Position numbers and translations under genes: made by a program | Shown here: positions 8,190-58,713 of the stretch, one piece after another | Layout of the letters: each line of letters starts with the position of its first letter | Numbering within the stretch: the stretch's first letter is position 1 | The notes under the pieces: model-generated | What the model saw: the letters and a program-made list of their open reading frames with translations, nothing else | Told to the model about the DNA's origin: nothing | Database searches by the model: none | From: Escherichia coli | GTDB lineage: Bacteria; Pseudomonadota; Gammaproteobacteria; Enterobacterales; Enterobacteriaceae | Assembly: GCF_024298765.1 (NCBI RefSeq) | Contig: NZ_CP101210.1 | Reading direction: 5' to 3' (one strand) | Length of the DNA: 64,000 nt

Positions 8190-8216
8190 ATGCACTGGAT
8201 AAGGATTATCCAATTC

Positions 8217-8255
8217 TAAAAAAAAGCCCGGACGACTGTTCGGGCTTGTCTTTTT
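8217..8255. terminator. Bidirectional intrinsic terminator shared by convergent ydbK (+) and micC (-)
   Basis: GC-rich hairpin (aagcccg ... cgggctt) flanked by an A run on one side and a T run on the other. Confidence 0.75.
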
Positions 8256-8327
8256 ATATGTTGGAAAATCAGTAGCAATGCAATGGCCCAACAGAAAATA
8301 AAATCTGTGACAATAAAGGCATATAAC
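8218..8327 (-). ncRNA. micC: MicC sRNA (Hfq-dependent repressor of ompC/ompD)
   Basis: Reverse complement reads GTTATATGCCTTTATTGTCACAGATTTTATTTTCTGTTGGGCCATTGCATTGCTACTGATTTTCCAACATATAAAAAGACAAGCCCGAACAGTCGTCCGGGCTTTTTTT, matching remembered MicC with about one mismatch; located between ydbK and ompN. Confidence 0.9.
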
Positions 8328-8554
8328 CCGCGCAGAATAACGTATAGCAAATTAAAAGTATAATTTTTATTTTGTATGTATTATCTTCAATACATTCACC
8401 AGACTTATTATCATTTCCGTAGAATTATTTGATTAAGGTTTTACTTAAGGCGTAACAAATGATATTTATCGGCTAACTGAACTTCTCCTTTAGGATGTTT
8501 TCACTCCCCGAAATGGGGATAAAAGGCAAATAAAATAACTAAAGGATTTATTCA

Positions 8555-10438: not shown

Positions 10439-11374
10439 ATGTCGCAAAATCAAGAAATTAGTAAGAAAGAACAATACAACCTGAACAAATTACAAAAACG
10501 TCTGCGTCGTAACGTGGGCGAAGCCATTGCTGACTTCAATATGATTGAAGAAGGCGATCGCATCATGGTTTGCCTCTCCGGGGGTAAAGACAGCTATACC
10601 ATGCTGGAAATTCTGCGCAATTTGCAGCAAAGCGCGCCAATCAATTTTTCGCTGGTGGCTGTTAACCTCGATCAAAAGCAACCGGGCTTCCCGGAACACG
10701 TTCTGCCCGAGTATCTTGAAAAGCTGGGCGTTGAGTACAAGATTGTGGAAGAGAACACTTACGGTATCGTGAAAGAGAAGATTCCGGAGGGCAAAACCAC
10801 TTGCTCACTGTGTTCTCGTCTTCGTCGCGGTATCCTTTATCGCACCGCAACGGAACTGGGGGCGACGAAGATCGCGCTGGGTCACCATCGTGACGATATC
10901 CTGCAAACGTTGTTCTTAAATATGTTCTACGGCGGCAAGATGAAAGGTATGCCTCCGAAACTGATGAGCGATGATGGCAAACATATTGTGATTCGTCCGC
11001 TGGCCTACTGCCGCGAGAAAGATATTCAGCGCTTTGCCGATGCAAAAGCGTTCCCGATTATTCCGTGCAACCTGTGCGGTTCACAGCCTAACCTGCAACG
11101 TCAGGTGATTGCTGACATGTTGCGTGACTGGGATAAACGTTATCCAGGGCGTATCGAGACGATGTTCAGCGCGATGCAGAATGTGGTGCCGTCGCATCTG
11201 TGCGATACCAACCTGTTCGATTTCAAAGGTATTACCCACGGTTCTGAAGTGGTTAACGGGGGTGATCTGGCGTTTGATCGCGAAGAGATCCCTCTACAAC
11301 CGGCGGGTTGGCAGCCTGAAGAAGATGAAAATCAGTTGGATGAGTTACGGCTGAATGTGGTTGAAGTGAAATAA
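10439..11374 (+). CDS. ttcA: tRNA 2-thiocytidine biosynthesis protein TtcA (PP-loop ATPase), with the native prophage-free N-terminus
   Basis: 311-aa ORF; PP-loop motif SGGKDS; CxxC pairs; N-terminus [12 protein letters not shown] differs from the remembered Rac-altered K-12 N-terminus. Confidence 0.93.
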
Positions 11375-13136: not shown

Positions 13137-13258
13137 AAAAAAAAGCCGACTCATCAAAGTCGGCGTCGTACGAATCAATTGTGCTATGCAGTAATTCAAA
13201 AAAGGAAGTAAGACAATATGGAGCGCAACGCCCATCGCTTGACGTTGCATTCACCTGC
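13137..13258 (-). ncRNA. fnrS: FnrS sRNA (FNR-activated, anaerobic)
   Basis: Reverse complement reads GCAGGTGAATGCAACGTCAAGCGATGGGCGTTGCGCTCCATATTGTCTTACTTCC...GACTTTGATGAGTCGGCTTTTTTTT with terminal hairpin and U tail; located between zntB and dbpA. Confidence 0.9.
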
Positions 13259-16408: not shown

Positions 16409-16602
16409 GTAACCTCCTATGCACCTTCACACGTCGTGATTCAGACGGGTTAATTGTTCATACTTACTGCATCGTTCCCTTCACAGATTGAAACAATACT
16501 CTACTTCATACCTGTGAGTATCTGCGCAGGCGGGGCATTTTATACTAGCCTGTTAGCAGTATCGAACAGTTTAGCCCGAGTTTAATTCAGCACAGGCTCC
16601 GA

Positions 16603-18117
16603 TCAGGATGATTTATTCATAGCAGGAACCAACAAAAATGCGATAAATAACAGACCACTGATTAGCAGAAAGGTATCCGAAAATGCCATAGTTTGCGCCT
16701 CCCTCAGCATCAACTGACTCAATAATTTGGTTGAAGCCAGTATTTCCGATGTCTGGTCACTTCCACTGCGATTAAAAAACAAAGCACTTCTGGAAATGAA
16801 GTCATTCACCGTATGGGGAACAGAAACCATTTTTTCACCCATTCTCGAAAAATGAAAATTAGTTCGATTATTGAGAATAGAGCCACACAGGGCAATACCA
16901 ATCGCGCCCCCAAGATTACGTGTTAAATTAAATACACCAGAGGCTAACTTCAGCCGTTCCTTTGGAATTCCCCCCAGCGTTAATGTTACGATGGGGGCCA
17001 TCGCAAACTGCTGCGAAATCCCTCTAATTGCCTGTGGAAACAGTAACTCCTGCCATCCCCATTCGTGGGTTATAGGGGTAAAAAGATACATTGAAAACAC
17101 AAATCCACCCAGCCCCGCCATCAACAGCCATCGCAGATTTATTTTTTTACTTAACCAGAAGTAAAAGGGAACAGAAAATAACTGGAAAATACCTGTTGTG
17201 CAAACGGCAAAACCTATCTCTTCGGCATTTAATCCGCGAACCTGCCCCAAAAACACAGGTATTAAATATACAGTAGAGAATATCCCAACCCCTCCAGAAA
17301 AAGAAAAAAAACATCCCAGCGTGAAATTTTTATCCTTAAAAGCATGAAGATCCATTATCGGATTGGATATTGTAAGTGTACGCGCAGCAAATAAAATAAA
17401 ACTCACCAATGCCAGAACTGATGTCAGCAAAATAGTATTATCATCCAGCCATCCCCAGCGCGCTCCTTCTTCAAGGGTATATTCCAGACATCCCAGTGTC
17501 ATGGCCAACAGGATAATACTCGGATAATCAGCAACTTTCAGTAAAGAGAGATCAGGTTTATCAAAATTAACCAGAAAAGGAATACTCAAAACTAAATATA
17601 TGCCAGGTAATATATTGATATAAAATAGCCATCGCCAGTCGAGGTTATCAGTGATCCAGCCCCCCAGAGTTGGCCCTAGCGTCGGTGACAGTGAGGCCAG
17701 CGCACTGACTACCGCAGCAGCCAACCCCAACTCTTTACCCTGGTAATAAATAAACGCCGTCGTGAAAACTAAAGGGATCATGGATGCGCCAGCCGCTCCC
17801 TGTAAAGCACGAAACAAAATCATGATCTGAATATTCCATGCAAGTCCACACGCGATACTCATTAAAGTAAATATTCCCGCGGATAGAGTAAAAAGCCAAC
17901 GAGTGGAAAATACCCGTGACAGCCACCCAGAGAGCGGAATAACAATAATCTCAGCAATTAAATAGCTGGTCTGAAGCCAGGCCATTTCGTCTTTACCTGC
18001 GGACAGACCACCACCTATTTCATTTAGGGATGACGATACAATTTGAATATCAAGCTGAGCAATAAATAATCCCATACACATACTGGCGAAAGCAATATGT
18101 TTACGCATAGACATCAT
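16603..18117 (-). CDS. MFS drug efflux transporter, EmrB/QacA (DHA2, 14-TMS) type; not a K-12 gene at this position
   Basis: 504-aa hydrophobic ORF with MFS architecture; start overlaps the stop of the upstream HlyD-family gene by 4 nt (operon). Confidence 0.8.
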   Translation of the reverse strand: MMSMRKHIAFASMCMGLFIAQLDIQIVSSSLNEIGGGLSAGKDEMAWLQTSYLIAEIIVIPLSGWLSRVFSTRWLFTLSAGIFTLMSIACGLAWNIQIMILFRALQGAAGASMIPLVFTTAFIYYQGKELGLAAAVVSALASLSPTLGPTLGGWITDNLDWRWLFYINILPGIYLVLSIPFLVNFDKPDLSLLKVADYPSIILLAMTLGCLEYTLEEGARWGWLDDNTILLTSVLALVSFILFAARTLTISNPIMDLHAFKDKNFTLGCFFSFSGGVGIFSTVYLIPVFLGQVRGLNAEEIGFAVCTTGIFQLFSVPFYFWLSKKINLRWLLMAGLGGFVFSMYLFTPITHEWGWQELLFPQAIRGISQQFAMAPIVTLTLGGIPKERLKLASGVFNLTRNLGGAIGIALCGSILNNRTNFHFSRMGEKMVSVPHTVNDFISRSALFFNRSGSDQTSEILASTKLLSQLMLREAQTMAFSDTFLLISGLLFIAFLLVPAMNKSS

Positions 18118-19145
18118 CTCTCATCGACACTGACGGTGACGGACAGTCCCGGGCGAAGAAGTTGCTTTAATTCCTTTGCGTCGTCAAATGCAATCCGTAC
18201 CGGGACACGCTGAACAATTTTGGTGAAATTGCCAGTGGCATTTTCTATCGGAATCAAGCTGAAACTGGCTCCTGTCGCTGGGGAAAGGCTTTCAATGTGA
18301 CCGTGAAACACTTCCCCTTTGAGAATATCAGCACGGATCTCAGCCTTCATTCCTGGCTTCATTCCCGCTATTTGGTTTTCTTTATAATTTGCATCAACCC
18401 ACAACTCACTGACTGGTACAAGTGAAACTAACGATGTGCCGCCTTCCACCCAACTGCCTGTATGGGCGCTGCGGTTTGCGACAATGCCATCAATCGGCGC
18501 ACGAACAAGGGTATATTCCAGATCCAGTAGTGCCTGAGTCAAAGCGGCCTGAACTTCTTCGATACTCGCACGTACGTTTTCTTCCTGAGCAGATAAAACT
18601 GCCAGCCGTTGCTTCTCCACCAGGAAATCGTTCGCGGCTTTGCGCTCCTTTGCTGCGACCTGCTGGTAGTCAAACCTGGCGTTATCAATAATTTGCTGCG
18701 ATATTGCCGCTGATTGTACGAGTTTTTCATAACGTTCAGTATCTCGCAGGCGCTTTTGCTCCTCATGTTTTACTGCCTGCCATGTTTCACTGGCACTTTG
18801 AATTATCGACTGCTGCATCGTAATAGTGGCTTGAATGCTTTCGAGATTGGCTTTTCTACTTTTTATTTTTGCCTCAAGCCTGGCGACATTTGCACGATAA
18901 TCCCGATCATCGAGACGCAGGATAATATCGCCTTTTTTTACGCTCTGATTATCACGCACCTCTATAGCAGAAATATAACCAGAAACTTTACTTGCCACCG
19001 TGGTAATATTACCACCAATGTAAGCATCATCCGTCGTCTGTATAAATCTTCCTTTGCTTACCCACCAGATAAAAAAGACAACGCCAGCCAAAATAATACC
19101 GATCGCTACTACCCCAATAAGCTGTTTTTTAGAAATTATCATCAC
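18114..19145 (-). CDS. HlyD-family membrane fusion protein (EmrA-like periplasmic adaptor)
   Basis: 343-aa ORF: N-terminal TM anchor (VVAIGIILAGVVFFIWW), long coiled-coil region, C-terminal beta-barrel-like domain; translationally coupled to the MFS gene. Confidence 0.8.
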   Translation of the reverse strand: MMIISKKQLIGVVAIGIILAGVVFFIWWVSKGRFIQTTDDAYIGGNITTVASKVSGYISAIEVRDNQSVKKGDIILRLDDRDYRANVARLEAKIKSRKANLESIQATITMQQSIIQSASETWQAVKHEEQKRLRDTERYEKLVQSAAISQQIIDNARFDYQQVAAKERKAANDFLVEKQRLAVLSAQEENVRASIEEVQAALTQALLDLEYTLVRAPIDGIVANRSAHTGSWVEGGTSLVSLVPVSELWVDANYKENQIAGMKPGMKAEIRADILKGEVFHGHIESLSPATGASFSLIPIENATGNFTKIVQRVPVRIAFDDAKELKQLLRPGLSVTVSVDER

Positions 19146-19500
19146 TCTTTACACCGTATATATCCGGAAACTTGCATTCGCCATATTTAAAATTTAACAT
19201 GGCTTATTTGATGATTTCTGACAAAATACCTACTGTAAATGACAATCACACTGCAACCCAAAGCATCACCAGGGCATCACATTATCGGACTGGATTCGGA
19301 ACATCTGAATGGAGGCACAGTTCCCTGGCATAAACATCTCTATGCCCAGTTGCTTTACCCGGCTGAAGGAGTCGTTCGTGTATGGGCTGGAGAAAGCGTC
19401 TGGCTAGTGCATGCCAGCAGCGCGCTTTGGCTGCCCCCACAAATGCCGCATAAGTTTGTTGCGACAGGCAACGTACTTTTAAAAACCGTACTGGTTTCAG

Positions 19501-19509
19501 AAGCGGAAA
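19501..19509. repeat. Left copy of the 9-bp target site duplication (AAGCGGAAA)
   Basis: Identical 9-mer directly abuts both ends of the IS (19501..19509 and 20567..20575). Confidence 0.9.
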
Positions 19510-20566
19510 GGCTTTGTTGAATAAATCAAATTTCGGGTAAGTCTCCCCCGTAGCGGGTTGTGTTTTCAGGCAATACGCACGCTTTCAGGTATACCTGCTT
19601 TCGTCATTTTGTTCAGCGCTCGTACCAGGGCCATAGCCTCCGCAACCTGACCATCGTAGTCACGCAGCGTCAGTGCCCCCCCGAACAGCTGTTTTACCCG
19701 GTACATCGCCGTTTCCGCTATCGAGCGACGGTTGTAATCTGTTGTCCATTTCCACCGCGCATTACTCCCGGTCATTCGCTGATTAGCCACTGCACGGTTA
19801 CGGTCTGCATATTCACCGGGCCAGTAACCCGCACCTTTTCGGGGAGGGATAAGCGCGCTGATTTTCTTACGCCGCAGTTCATCGTGACATAGCCGGGTAT
19901 CGTAAGCGCCATCGGCGGCGGCTGACCTGATTTTCCGGTGGGTTTGCCGGATTAACCCGGGGAAGGCCTCTGAGTCCGTAACGTTGTTCAGCGACAGGTC
20001 TGCACAGATGATTTCATGTGTTTTACTGTCAACGGCGAGATGCAGCTTACGCCAGATACGGCGGCGTTCCTGGCCATGCTTTTTGACTTTCCACTCGCCT
20101 TCACCGAAGACCTTCAGCCCGGTGGAATCAATCACCAGATGTGCGATTTCACCCCGGGTGGGCGTTTTGAAACTGACATTAACCGACTTTGCCCGCCTGC
20201 TGACACAGCTGTAATCCGGGCAGCGTAGCGGAACGTTCATCAGAGAAAAAATGGAATCAATAAAGCCCTGCGCAGCGCGCAGGGTCAGCCTGAATACGCG
20301 TTTAATGACCAGCACAGTCGTGATGGCAAGGTCAGAATAGCGCTGAGGTCTGCCTCGTGAAGAAGGTGTTGCTGACTCATACCAGGCCTGAATAGCTTCA
20401 TCATCCAGCCAGAAAGTTATGGAGCCACGGTTGATGAGGGCTTTATTGTAGGTGGGCCAGTTGGTGATTTTGAACTTTTGCTTTGCCACGGAACGGTCTG
20501 CGTTGTCGGGAAGATACGTGATCTGATCCTTCAACTCAGCAAAAGTTCGATTTATTCAACAAAGCC
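19510..20566 (-). mobile_element. IS903-like insertion sequence (IS5 family, IS903 group), 1057 bp
   Basis: Terminal 18-bp inverted repeats GGCTTTGTTGAATAAATC at 19510..19527 and, inverted, at 20549..20566; right end matches the remembered IS903 end GGCTTTGTTGAATAAATCGAACTTTTGCTGAGTTGAAGGATCAGATC; single transposase ORF; flanked by 9-bp direct repeats. Confidence 0.92.
19566..20534 (-). CDS. IS903-family DDE transposase
   Basis: 322-aa ORF (true start may be internal) resembling the remembered IS903 transposase (e.g. GRPQRYSDLAI..., WRKLHLAVD...THEIICADLSLNNVTD...); transcribed toward the HlyD/MFS genes. Confidence 0.9.
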   Translation of the reverse strand: MKDQITYLPDNADRSVAKQKFKITNWPTYNKALINRGSITFWLDDEAIQAWYESATPSSRGRPQRYSDLAITTVLVIKRVFRLTLRAAQGFIDSIFSLMNVPLRCPDYSCVSRRAKSVNVSFKTPTRGEIAHLVIDSTGLKVFGEGEWKVKKHGQERRRIWRKLHLAVDSKTHEIICADLSLNNVTDSEAFPGLIRQTHRKIRSAAADGAYDTRLCHDELRRKKISALIPPRKGAGYWPGEYADRNRAVANQRMTGSNARWKWTTDYNRRSIAETAMYRVKQLFGGALTLRDYDGQVAEAMALVRALNKMTKAGIPESVRIA

Positions 20567-20575
20567 AAGCGGAAA
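20567..20575. repeat. Right copy of the 9-bp target site duplication (AAGCGGAAA)
   Basis: See left copy. Confidence 0.9.
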
Positions 20576-21190
20576 GTGAAACGCTGGGAAAAGTTTGCTT
20601 CATGACGGGTATTTCACCCCTGTTAAGAGAATTACTAATTGCAATTAACCAACTTCCACCGTCGCAAAGTACCACAGATAAACAACAGTTACGTTTTTCA
20701 GCCCTCGAGACACTGATACTTCAGGAAATAAAAATGGGGGTGAAAATGTCACTTGAACTCCCTTGGCCAAATGATGAGCGGCTACAGCAGCTTTGTGAGA
20801 ATTTGCTAAACAACCAAGGGTATCTGCCAACACTGGATAATCTAGCGGATAAAATTAACGTCAGTAGCCGTACACTCATGCGCTTATTTGTTAAAGAGAC
20901 GGGATTAACATTTCGCCACTGGGTTCAGCAAATGCACGTTATTTCTGCAGTGACGCTTCTTGATGATGGATATTCGTTGACCAAAATTGCCCATCGTCTG
21001 GGCTATGCCTCAGCTGAATCGTTCGGCAATATGTTTAAGCGTCGAACGGGCTACTCGCCCGGTAAATTTACTCGTCGATTAACGATGCATGATTATGCAA
21101 TCACAAGGCAAATGATTTAACTTATATTTTCGTGAAATCTGTCACTGAAGAAAATTGGCAACGGATGGGTAAAACCGTTATAACACTGTC

Positions 21191-21285
21191 ACCGGTCACC
21201 AGGACCCCAGGCCGGATTTAAGACGAGGATGCACTGCTGTGTGTACTGTAGAGTCTGGCGGATGTCGACAGGCTCTATTTTTTTA
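21191..21285 (+). ncRNA. mcaS: McaS (IsrA) sRNA, CsrA-binding regulator of motility and biofilm
   Basis: ACCGGTCACCAGGACCCCAGGCCGGATTTAAGACGAGGATGCACTGCTGTGTGTACTGTAGAGTCTGGCGGATGTCGACAGGCTCTATTTTTTT matches remembered McaS core with GGA motifs and intrinsic terminator; from memory, so the 5' boundary is approximate. Confidence 0.65.
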
Positions 21286-21663
21286 TTCATTTTTTAGCTC
21301 TGTAAATAACCACATTCTCGCCGGGATTGGGGAATGAGTGACGAGATCAGTGGTGTCTGGCGGCTATCACGCCACAGAATCAAATAACAGATAGCCTACG
21401 GTAAAATTTCGCTGACTGGAATTATCCCACCCTCGATCCATGTGATGGCTTGCCCTCATTTCTTCAGGCAGAAAAATCAAAAAATCGCTTTATGCTATCA
21501 GACTGCGACAAACCAGACGCGAAACTGGGTACTTACTATTCGTTAGTCTTGCCCTATCCGCTTATCTTTTTGGTGGTATGGCTGCTGATGTTGCTGGCGT
21601 GGTATCTTGTTGGTCTGCCGATAGGTCCGGGGATTTACCCACGTTTGTCTTAAGAGAGAACGG

Positions 21664-23277: not shown

Positions 23278-24228
23278 ATGGCTATGTATCAGAACATGCT
23301 CGTTGTTATCGATCCTAACCAGGACGACCAACCAGCATTGCGGCGAGCTGTTTATTTACATCAACGGATTGGTGGCAAAATTAAAGCCTTTTTGCCGATC
23401 TATGACTTCTCATACGAAATGACCACCCTGCTCTCTCCGGACGAACGTACCGCTATGCGTCAGGGCGTCATCAGCCAGCGTACAGCCTGGATCCACGAGC
23501 AGGCAAAATATTATCTCAATGCTGGCGTTCCCATTGAAATTAAAGTGGTCTGGCATAACCGTCCTTTCGAAGCCATCATTCAGGAAGTGATCAGCGGCGG
23601 GCACGATTTGGTGCTAAAAATGGCGCACCAACATGACCGTCTGGAAGCGGTGATTTTTACGCCAACGGACTGGCATCTGTTACGCAAATGCCCAAGCCCG
23701 GTGTGGATGGTGAAAGACCAGCCGTGGCCGGAAGGGGGTAAGGCGCTGGTGGCGGTGAATCTCGCCAGTGAAGAGCCGTATCATAATGCGCTCAATGAAA
23801 AACTGGTCAAAGAGACGATCGAACTGGCGGAACAAGTCAACCATACCGAAGTTCATCTGGTTGGCGCTTATCCGGTAACGCCAATTAATATCGCGATTGA
23901 ACTGCCGGAATTTGATCCGAGCGTTTATAACGATGCCATTCGTGGGCAACATTTGCTGGCAATGAAAGCCCTGCGGCAGAAATTCGGCATTAATGAAAAC
24001 ATGACGCACGTAGAAAAAGGTCTGCCAGAAGAGGTGATTCCTGATTTGGCGGAGCATTTACAGGCGGGGATTGTGGTTCTGGGCACGGTCGGACGCACCG
24101 GTATTTCAGCGGCATTCCTCGGCAACACGGCGGAACAGGTGATTGATCATCTTCGCTGCGACCTGCTGGTCATTAAACCTGACCAGTATCAGACACCCGT
24201 TGAACTGGATGACGAAGAAGACGATTAA
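23278..24228 (+). CDS. uspE: Universal stress protein E (tandem Usp domains)
   Basis: ORF 23251..24228; start preferred at [13 protein letters not shown] (316 aa). Confidence 0.93.
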
Positions 24229-24277
24229 CGACTCTTCAATAACTGACAAGGCCCGAGTTATCGGGCCTATTTTTTAC

Positions 24278-24535
24278 TTACTGCTCTTCGCCGCCAAGAA
24301 AATAAATTCCCAACGGGATTGCCAGCAACACAGTAAAGACCAGGCTATAAACAAAAATCATCGATGACTGAATCACATACATTGATGTCGTCCACTCAGA
24401 CAGCGGAATATTGTACTGTTCTATAACGCCGCCGATGGTCGCGCGAGTCACAACCGACGCCGCAATAATGAAAACCGCCAACAAACCAAAGAGAAATTTC
24501 TTCCCTTTCGCTGACTTCAGTTTCGCCATAATCAT
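24278..24535 (-). CDS. ynaJ: Small inner-membrane protein YnaJ
   Basis: 85-aa ORF with two predicted TM helices; synteny. Confidence 0.85.
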   Translation of the reverse strand: MIMAKLKSAKGKKFLFGLLAVFIIAASVVTRATIGGVIEQYNIPLSEWTTSMYVIQSSMIFVYSLVFTVLLAIPLGIYFLGGEEQ

Positions 24536-24778
24536 GATGTAATCCTTGTGCAGACAAATTTCTTGTTACCTAAACGTAACAATACCATGACATTTCACCG
24601 TTGTCTGCTCTGAAAACCTCACCTCTTAGCTGGATTTACAATCAACGCATTGATTAGTTAGCTAATGTTGCTACTTCCTTCCCTGACTATTGATGATCTG
24701 AATGAATTGTCGCGGTAAAATAGCCCCGCCAGGGGTTTCCGGCATGACGACAATTATCTGGAGGAGCCTGATAAAACA

Positions 24779-25810
24779 ATGATCGCTGAACTGTTTACAA
24801 ATAATGCGCTAAATCTGGTCATTATTTTCGGTAGCTGCGCAGCATTGATTCTGATGAGCTTTTGGTTTCGCCGCGGAAATCGTAAAAGAAAAGGTTTTTT
24901 ATTCCATGCGGTGCAATTTTTAATCTACACCATAATTATCAGTGCTGTTGGTAGCATCATTAATTATGTTATAGAAAACTATAAACTCAAATTTATCACC
25001 CCAGGCGTTATCGATTTTATCTGTACGTCCCTGATTGCGGCTATTCTGACGATTAAGCTATTTCTGCTGATTAATCAGTTTGAAAAACAGCAGATTAAAA
25101 AAGGTCGCGATATCACCAGTGCGCGGATTATGTCGCGTATCATCAAAATCACCATTATTGTGGTGCTTGTTCTGCTTTATGGCGAACATTTCGGCATGAG
25201 CCTTTCTGGCTTGTTGACCTTTGGTGGTATTGGTGGTCTGGCTGTCGGTATGGCCGGTAAAGATATTCTGAGTAACTTCTTTTCCGGGATTATGCTCTAT
25301 TTCGACCGTCCTTTTAGTATTGGCGACTGGATCCGTTCACCGGACAGAAATATCGAAGGTACAGTAGCGGAAATTGGCTGGCGAATTACCAAAATTACGA
25401 CCTTTGATAATCGTCCGTTGTACGTACCGAACTCGCTGTTTTCGTCAATCAGCGTAGAAAACCCAGGACGAATGACCAACCGGCGCATTACCACGACCAT
25501 TGGTTTACGTTATGAGGATGCGGCAAAAGTGGGCGTTATTGTCGAAGCCGTACGTGAGATGCTGAAAAATCACCCGGCCATCGACCAGCGACAAACCTTA
25601 CTGGTTTATTTCAACCAGTTTGCTGACTCTTCATTGAATATTATGGTTTATTGCTTTACCAAAACCACGGTATGGGCTGAATGGCTTGCTGCACAGCAAG
25701 ACGTTTATTTGAAGATTATCGATATTGTACAGTCACACGGCGCGGACTTTGCCTTCCCCAGCCAGACGCTGTATATGGATAACATTACACCGCCGGACCA
25801 GGGTCGCTAA
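24779..25810 (+). CDS. ynaI: MscS-family low-conductance mechanosensitive channel YnaI
   Basis: 343-aa ORF; N-terminal TM helices followed by an MscS-type domain. Confidence 0.92.
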
Positions 25811-29838: not shown

Positions 29839-30477
29839 ATGAAAAATGTACTGATTCTTGGTGCTGGCGGTCAGATAGCCCGCCATGTGATTAATCAACT
29901 GGCAGATAAACAAACCATTAAACAAACTTTATTTGCCCGTCAGCCAGCAAAAATCCACAAACCCTATCCCACTAATAGCAAGATTATTATGGGGGATGTA
30001 CTGAATCATGCAGCACTGAAGCAGGCCATGCAGGGACAGGATGTTGTGTATGCCAACCTTACGGGGGAAGATTTAGATATTCAGGCAAATTCAGTGATCG
30101 CTGCGATGAAAGCCGGTGATGTTAAACGTCTGATCTTTGTTCTTTCCCTCGGTATTTATGATGAAGTTCCAGGAAAATTTGGCGAATGGAATAATGCAGT
30201 TATTGGTGAACCCCTAAAACCATTCCGCAGGGCTGCAGATGCAATTGAGGCTTCTGGACTGGAATATACAATTCTTCGCCCTGCCTGGCTGACTGATGAA
30301 GATATTATTGATTATGAGCTTACCTCACGCAATGAACCATTCAAAGGTACGATCGTATCACGTAAGAGTGTCGCAGCATTAATTACAGATATCATCGATA
30401 AACCTGAGAAACACATTGGTGAGAATATAGGAATCAATCAACCCGGGACTGATGGCGATAAGCCATTCTTCATGTAA
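29839..30477 (+). CDS. NAD(P)-binding Rossmann-fold protein (NmrA/atypical SDR-like); intact form of the locus remembered as ymjC/ymjD fragments in K-12
   Basis: 212-aa ORF; N-terminal dinucleotide-binding motif LILGAGGQIA. Confidence 0.8.
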   Translation: MKNVLILGAGGQIARHVINQLADKQTIKQTLFARQPAKIHKPYPTNSKIIMGDVLNHAALKQAMQGQDVVYANLTGEDLDIQANSVIAAMKAGDVKRLIFVLSLGIYDEVPGKFGEWNNAVIGEPLKPFRRAADAIEASGLEYTILRPAWLTDEDIIDYELTSRNEPFKGTIVSRKSVAALITDIIDKPEKHIGENIGINQPGTDGDKPFFM

Positions 30478-30642
30478 ATCAATTATATAGCTACCATCGT
30501 ACTGTACTATGTGCAGTACGATTTATTAAACTTATTAAGGTGAACTGATCAATCAGATGCGATTAACATGTGTAGAACCAGTAAGAATAAAATACGCCAT
30601 GTATATAACATTACGACAATTCTAATATCTGCACATCAATGA

Positions 30643-38402: not shown

Positions 38403-38408
38403 ATGTAT

Positions 38409-38438
38409 GCCGGATTTGGCGCTCGCCCCGCATCCGGC
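38409..38438. repeat. REP-like palindromic unit between ycjW and ompG
   Basis: gccggatttggcgctcgccccgcatccggc. Confidence 0.6.
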
Positions 38439-58564: not shown

Positions 58565-58713
58565 TATGACTCCTGTTTCACGTCTATCAGATATATGCAG
58601 TTTGTGAACGTCAGGGCGCAGAGATCCCCGGGCCGTATGCCCGTTTATTTCTGGCGACATTCTTTATAGATTGCCGGGCGCATTGCGCTTACCCGGCTTA
58701 CAGAACAAAAAGA

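Follow-up and report, generated by a model that had tools for sequence, protein, structure and literature searches.

The window analysed here is a 64,000-nucleotide (64-kb) stretch of Escherichia coli DNA, to which all positions refer unless K-12 is named. Positions 24536-24778 correspond exactly to the 243-bp non-coding spacer (42% GC) between the divergently transcribed ynaJ and ynaI genes, which is uninterrupted and contains no insertion sequence (IS). The ynaJ gene (24278-24535, minus strand) encodes an 85-amino-acid small membrane protein of the DUF2534 type and is identical to its K-12 counterpart at 257 of 258 nucleotides and at all 85 amino acids. The ynaI gene (24779-25810, plus strand) encodes a 343-amino-acid low-conductance mechanosensitive channel of the MscS family; it matches K-12 at 1020 of 1032 nucleotides, with two amino-acid differences, and its product hits the MscS-family mechanosensitive channel models. 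Both gene names are those given by the RefSeq annotation of matching genomes. The local gene order is uspE (plus strand, ending at 24228), a hairpin terminator, ynaJ (minus), the spacer, ynaI (plus) and mppA (minus). The hairpin, which is GC-rich and has T runs on both sides, occupies positions 24249-24268 between the convergent uspE and ynaJ genes; this bidirectional ynaJ-uspE terminator is a model in studies of RNA polymerase collisions (bioRxiv 10.1101/2022.10.23.513370). No Rfam family was matched in the spacer, and the only small RNA genes found in the window at the Rfam gathering threshold are MicC (8210-8330, minus), FnrS (13141-13258, minus) and McaS (21191-21286, plus).

The K-12 MG1655 locus (NC_000913.3, 1394891-1397622) has the same divergent ynaI/ynaJ arrangement as the window, but its spacer is occupied. 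The MG1655 annotation places there the 1195-bp element IS5F, with the insH4 gene (b1331), at 1396044-1397238 between ynaI (b1330) and ynaJ (b1332). The first-pass annotation of the window had stated that K-12 carries an insH/IS5 copy between these two genes, and had noticed that the spacer is uninterrupted here; both statements proved correct, and K-12 does carry an IS at this position. When IS5F and one copy of the tetranucleotide CTAA are removed from the K-12 spacer, the remaining sequence is the window spacer, with 0 mismatches over 243 bp. The K-12 flank on the ynaI side is 121 bp long and ends with ...TTAGCTAA, the flank on the ynaJ side is 126 bp long and starts with CTAACTAA..., and the right joined length is reached only if 4 bp are duplicated. 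Similarly, the BLAST segments obtained by comparing the whole window with K-12 break at the IS5 point and overlap by 4 bp, at 24658-24661. The alignment to K-12, which had been proposed as the way to locate the insertion point, thus gave both this point and the 4-bp CTAA duplication. From the reconstruction and the segment overlap, the unoccupied IS5 target is the tetranucleotide at 24658-24661, which reads TTAG on the plus strand and CTAA on the minus strand. It is present once in the window, whereas in K-12 a CTAA stands at either end of IS5F; the window thus lacks both the element and the second CTAA.

This target is the middle one of three abutting tetranucleotides of the IS5 target type (TTAG-TTAG-CTAA, 24654-24665), and positions 24658-24665 form the palindrome TTAGCTAA. 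IS5 has been reported to insert at CTAA/CTAG sites; K-12 BW25113 contains 11 IS5 copies, one of them at ynaI/ynaJ, and a strain with a clean deletion of this copy has been built (PMC11677980). The empty site is therefore already known, as an ordinary strain polymorphism documented in the MG1655 annotation and in the literature. We regard it as very highly probable that the window shows the divergent ynaJ-ynaI promoter region in its ancestral state, into which IS5 had never inserted, and that the K-12 lineage gained an IS5 element at CTAA. In the history that we propose, the 1195-bp IS5 would have inserted, in the K-12 lineage, into the CTAA equivalent to 24658-24661, duplicating these 4 bp, while the window strain, a non-K-12 strain near-identical to D10 and to poultry/APEC-type isolates, would never have received the insertion.

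An absent IS can also be a product of assembly, in which an element present in the strain is dropped or collapsed, and multi-copy IS elements are a classic cause of assembly errors. Such an artefact is extremely unlikely here, for the following reasons. First, repeats usually break contigs rather than vanish seamlessly. Second, no IS5 sequence was found anywhere in the 64-kb window, neither by blastn and megablast with the K-12 IS5F element nor by tblastn with InsH. In the spacer itself, we found neither an element of about 1195 bp with the IS5 terminal inverted repeats (GGAAGGTGCGAA...) nor insH, both of which were recovered from the K-12 positive control. Third, the 823-bp junction-free sequence, which runs from ynaJ through the spacer into the beginning of ynaI, is 100% identical in many independent complete genomes. 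Fourth, the genome of D10 (NZ_CP010157.1) is collinear with the entire window, has an identical uninterrupted spacer and differs from the window by only 6 SNPs in 63 kb; the empty site and the identical spacer also occur in strain 104, APEC O78:H4 and APEC O2-211. Fifth, the same assembly has resolved a multi-copy IS element, IS903B, with its ends and its target duplication intact.

This IS903B copy is 1057 bp long (19510-20566), is bounded by the inverted repeats 19510-19542 and 20534-20566 (GGCTTTGTTGAATAAATC...), and is flanked by the 9-bp target duplication AAGCGGAAA at 19501-19509 and 20567-20575. Its transposase matches the NF033579 model (E=7e-107), and the element shares 99.4% DNA identity with annotated IS903B copies. 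The IS903-like element that had been noticed as the only IS of the window is thus identified as IS903B, and it is indeed the only one. IS903B is classed in the IS5 family, in the IS903 group, but its DNA is unrelated to that of IS5 proper. It lies inside the gene of an AraC-family regulator belonging to an MFS/HlyD efflux module, and the two halves of this gene are found at 19239-19520 and 20602-21120. It is missing in D10, of which it is the sole insertion difference with the window (1066 bp), and no transposase is annotated in D10 across the whole matching stretch. As IS903B is absent from the near-identical D10 and from the other closest genomes, it is a very recent strain-specific insertion.

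The distribution of the empty and filled sites was studied in 5426 complete E. coli genomes. Using the 823-bp sequence as the query for the empty site, the uninterrupted form was found in 5055 of them (93%); as this is the majority state, finding it in the window hardly raises a question of chance. With the two K-12 junctions as queries (L001 5925-6164 and 7120-7359), the left one (ynaI flank plus IS5 end) was found in 353 genomes and the right one (IS5 end plus ynaJ flank) in 346, while 14 genomes had neither the uninterrupted form nor the left junction. The difference of seven genomes that have the left junction without the right one may correspond to IS5-adjacent deletions, such as the IS5-mediated loss of ynaJ-uspE-fnr reported in K-12 stocks (PMC2072959). 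We inspected by name 64 junction-positive records, namely the best 60 of the 346 for the right junction and 4 of the 353 for the left junction. Most of these 64 are named K-12 derivatives, such as MG1655, C600, J53, DH5alpha, DH1, NCM3722, HB101/RR1, NEB strains and similar ones; the few others resemble K-12 in genome size (4.5-4.7 Mb) and in IS5 copy number (9-18 places).

To look beyond complete E. coli genomes, we used a degenerate pattern for a YnaI motif, which returned 114 loci, 24 of which have ynaJ directly upstream and divergent. These 24 loci come from Escherichia (E. albertii, E. whittamii, Escherichia sp. E1V33 and two E. coli), many Citrobacter, and the subspecies arizonae and diarizonae of Salmonella enterica. 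In all 23 loci where both gene starts are intact, the spacer is uninterrupted and 234-249 bp long. The occurrence of such a spacer in other Escherichia, in Citrobacter and in Salmonella indicates that the empty site is ancestral, and, as read from these comparisons of sequences, the K-12 insertion is most probably a recent lineage-specific event.

The same data bear on another history, in which an ancestor of the window strain had IS5 at the site and then lost it by precise excision. Precise excision would leave an identical outcome, a single CTAA in a 243-bp spacer, so that the spacer sequence by itself fits both histories equally well. It is nevertheless hardly credible as an explanation. 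The filled site was seen in K-12-lineage genomes only, among those inspected, and the empty form is that of 93% of E. coli and of all the Escherichia, Citrobacter and Salmonella species sampled. In addition, the window strain shows a divergence of 1-4% from K-12 over the region, together with several large structural differences, and it therefore does not descend from K-12.

These structural differences are as follows. In the BLAST comparison, the window is collinear with K-12 except for the Rac prophage, the abgRABT region, IS5F, 660 bp and two small indels. Rac (K-12 1411899-1434958) is absent, as had been claimed in the first-pass annotation: K-12 position 1411941 joins 1434959, and the two K-12 flanks overlap by 43 bp at window positions 10446-10488. 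At these positions, in the 3' end of ttcA, lies the Rac attachment site in its empty state; ttcA is intact, and D10 is likewise annotated with an intact ttcA and without Rac. The abgRABT genes of K-12 are replaced by a segment of about 4.7 kb (16419-21084, in a region extending to 21507), which carries genes for a DHA2 MFS efflux permease (frameshifted according to the D10 annotation), an HlyD-family protein and the AraC-family regulator; short remnants of abgR and abgT are kept beside it and the McaS small RNA gene is retained (21191-21286). A 23-kb query including this segment was covered over at least 80% of its length in about 1464 of the 5426 genomes.

Two further genes had been described as intact in the window and lesioned in K-12. 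For ycjV, the statement holds on the basis of the annotation of the near-identical D10, which has an intact 1083-bp gene for an ABC ATP-binding protein where K-12 has the ycjV/ymjB pseudogenes. For the ymjC/D-type gene, it holds too. The 660 bp that the window has in addition to K-12, at 29977-30638, complete a gene for an SDR-family oxidoreductase, of which ymjC/ymjD are the remnants in K-12, and in D10, too, the SDR oxidoreductase gene annotated at the place of the ymjC/ymjD fragments is intact. However, 2292 of the 5426 complete genomes share the ymjC/D deletion junction of the K-12 type; the deletion is therefore a widespread polymorphism and not a K-12-specific lesion. Altogether, the features of the K-12 lineage absent from the window are IS5F at ynaI/ynaJ, Rac in ttcA, abgRABT, the ycjV/ymjB split and the ymjC/ymjD remnant. 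The small differences comprise the ycjW-ompG interval, which is about 78 bp in K-12 versus about 17 bp in the window (38404-38422), and the puuR-puuC spacer, where K-12 has about 121 bp more than the window (58665-58668); both possibly correspond to REP-type elements.

As a step towards the organization of the spacer, we aligned 23 species-representative spacers from Escherichia, Citrobacter and Salmonella, and read promoters from conservation and resemblance to the consensus. Three blocks are invariant: AACAATACCATGACA (24579-24593), TGTCTG (24602-24607) and TAAAAT (24716-24721). They are common to the window and to the spacers of E. albertii, E. whittamii, Citrobacter spp. and S. enterica subsp. 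arizonae and diarizonae. We infer that they represent the candidate core promoter of ynaJ and the candidate -10 element of ynaI. On the ynaJ side (24579-24607, minus strand), the blocks would supply a -35 element CAGACA (24607-24602), a 17-nucleotide spacer and an extended -10 element TGgTATTGT (24587-24579). On the ynaI side, the candidate -10 element TAAAAT (24716-24721, plus strand) is invariant in 23 of the 23 spacers and lies 55-60 nucleotides from the ATG in 22 of them. A stricter consensus scan, at the threshold that it applies, did not call any sigma-70-type promoter in the spacer.

The candidate ynaJ promoter is overlapped by two symmetrical elements. The palindrome TTGTTAC-N6-GTAACAA (24563-24582), which is largely conserved, overlaps the candidate -10/start region and appears operator-like. 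It is enclosed by an 8-bp inverted repeat, GCAGACAA / TTGTCTGC, whose arms are 43 bp apart (24550-24608) and are kept across Escherichia, Citrobacter and Salmonella. Judging from their conservation and position, the palindrome and the repeat could be binding sites for regulators.

Some other elements of the spacer were considered and set aside. An ORF of 26 codons (24702-24782) has a stop codon that shares an ATGA with the start of ynaI. It is unlikely to be a genuine upstream ORF, because Citrobacter and Salmonella do not conserve its ATG and because the ORF lies upstream of the candidate -10 element TAAAAT. We do not claim a structured leader RNA on either side, the folding z-scores being −2.56 on the ynaJ side and −1.26 on the ynaI side. 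The folds of the putative ynaI leader vary between species, and the arms of the ynaJ-side repeat (24550-57 and 24601-08) straddle the candidate promoter, so that they are unlikely to be found in one transcript.

The middle of the spacer is more variable. Its least conserved part is 24614-24643 (identity 0.57-0.59), and neither this central part nor the exact TTAG/CTAA cluster is kept beyond the close relatives of E. coli. The spacer would be an ordinary back-to-back promoter region, with a candidate promoter on either side of this variable middle. The K-12 IS5 landed in the middle, at 24658-24661, which is 51 bp upstream of the candidate ynaJ -35 element and 55 bp upstream of the candidate ynaI -10 element. 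Both candidate core promoters should therefore survive in K-12, and this position suggests that the K-12 insertion spares both of them and is presumably neutral. That the IS5 target sits between two conserved candidate core promoters is, in our reading of the alignment, a modest addition to what was already known. Consistent with an intact core promoter in K-12, ynaI transcripts are easily detected in Frag1, a strain derived from K-12 (PMC3508906).

The insertion could also have functional consequences, if the divergent promoters of the wild-type spacer share upstream elements or are coupled, and if the K-12 IS5 disrupts or rewires them, thereby causing a regulatory difference. The activation of glpFK, flhDC and bgl, among other genes, by IS5 elements inserted upstream of promoters lends this idea some weight. 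In addition, a distance of only about 50 bp separates the target from either candidate core promoter, and on the ynaI side the target adjoins the conserved motif GCTAAT (24661-24666). However, the GCTAAT motif stays contiguous with the ynaI side through the target duplication, the target lies next to the part of the spacer where conservation is lowest, and the Frag1 mRNA indicates that ynaI is expressed in a K-12 derivative. Our literature search found no report of an expression effect of the ynaI/ynaJ IS5 copy. We therefore consider a regulatory difference unlikely; slightly less probable still is the specific version in which the uninterrupted spacer gives the ynaJ and ynaI promoters common upstream elements or topological coupling, and in which the K-12 IS5 has uncoupled them. 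We thus retain the ancestral, never-occupied promoter region as the reading of the window, with an insertion gained in the K-12 lineage.

The same locus is known for the rearrangements of fnr in K-12 stocks. The b1331 IS5 next to ynaI is one of the partners whose recombination generates the ynaJ-uspE-fnr deletion in some W3110 and MG1655 stocks (PMC2072959), and IS5-mediated rearrangements around fnr are also reported by Sawers 2005, as cited in PMC3149613. The window differs in that IS5 is found neither at ynaJ/ynaI nor upstream of fnr; its ogt-fnr spacer is 194 bp, the same as in MG1655. As a consequence, the window strain has no substrate for the ynaJ-uspE-fnr deletion, and other strains with the empty site likewise lack the IS5 copy involved in it.

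The empty ynaJ-ynaI site is useful as a strain marker, and it is neither novel nor surprising. It confirms both the non-K-12 E. coli origin of the window and the status of IS5F/insH4 as a marker of the laboratory K-12 lineage rather than of the species. Studies of ynaI and ynaJ regulation performed in K-12 deal with a 1.2-kb IS5 between the two promoter regions, unlike 93% of the sequenced E. coli. If the promoters were uncoupled by this element, the expression of the YnaI channel and of YnaJ as measured in K-12 would not be representative of the species.
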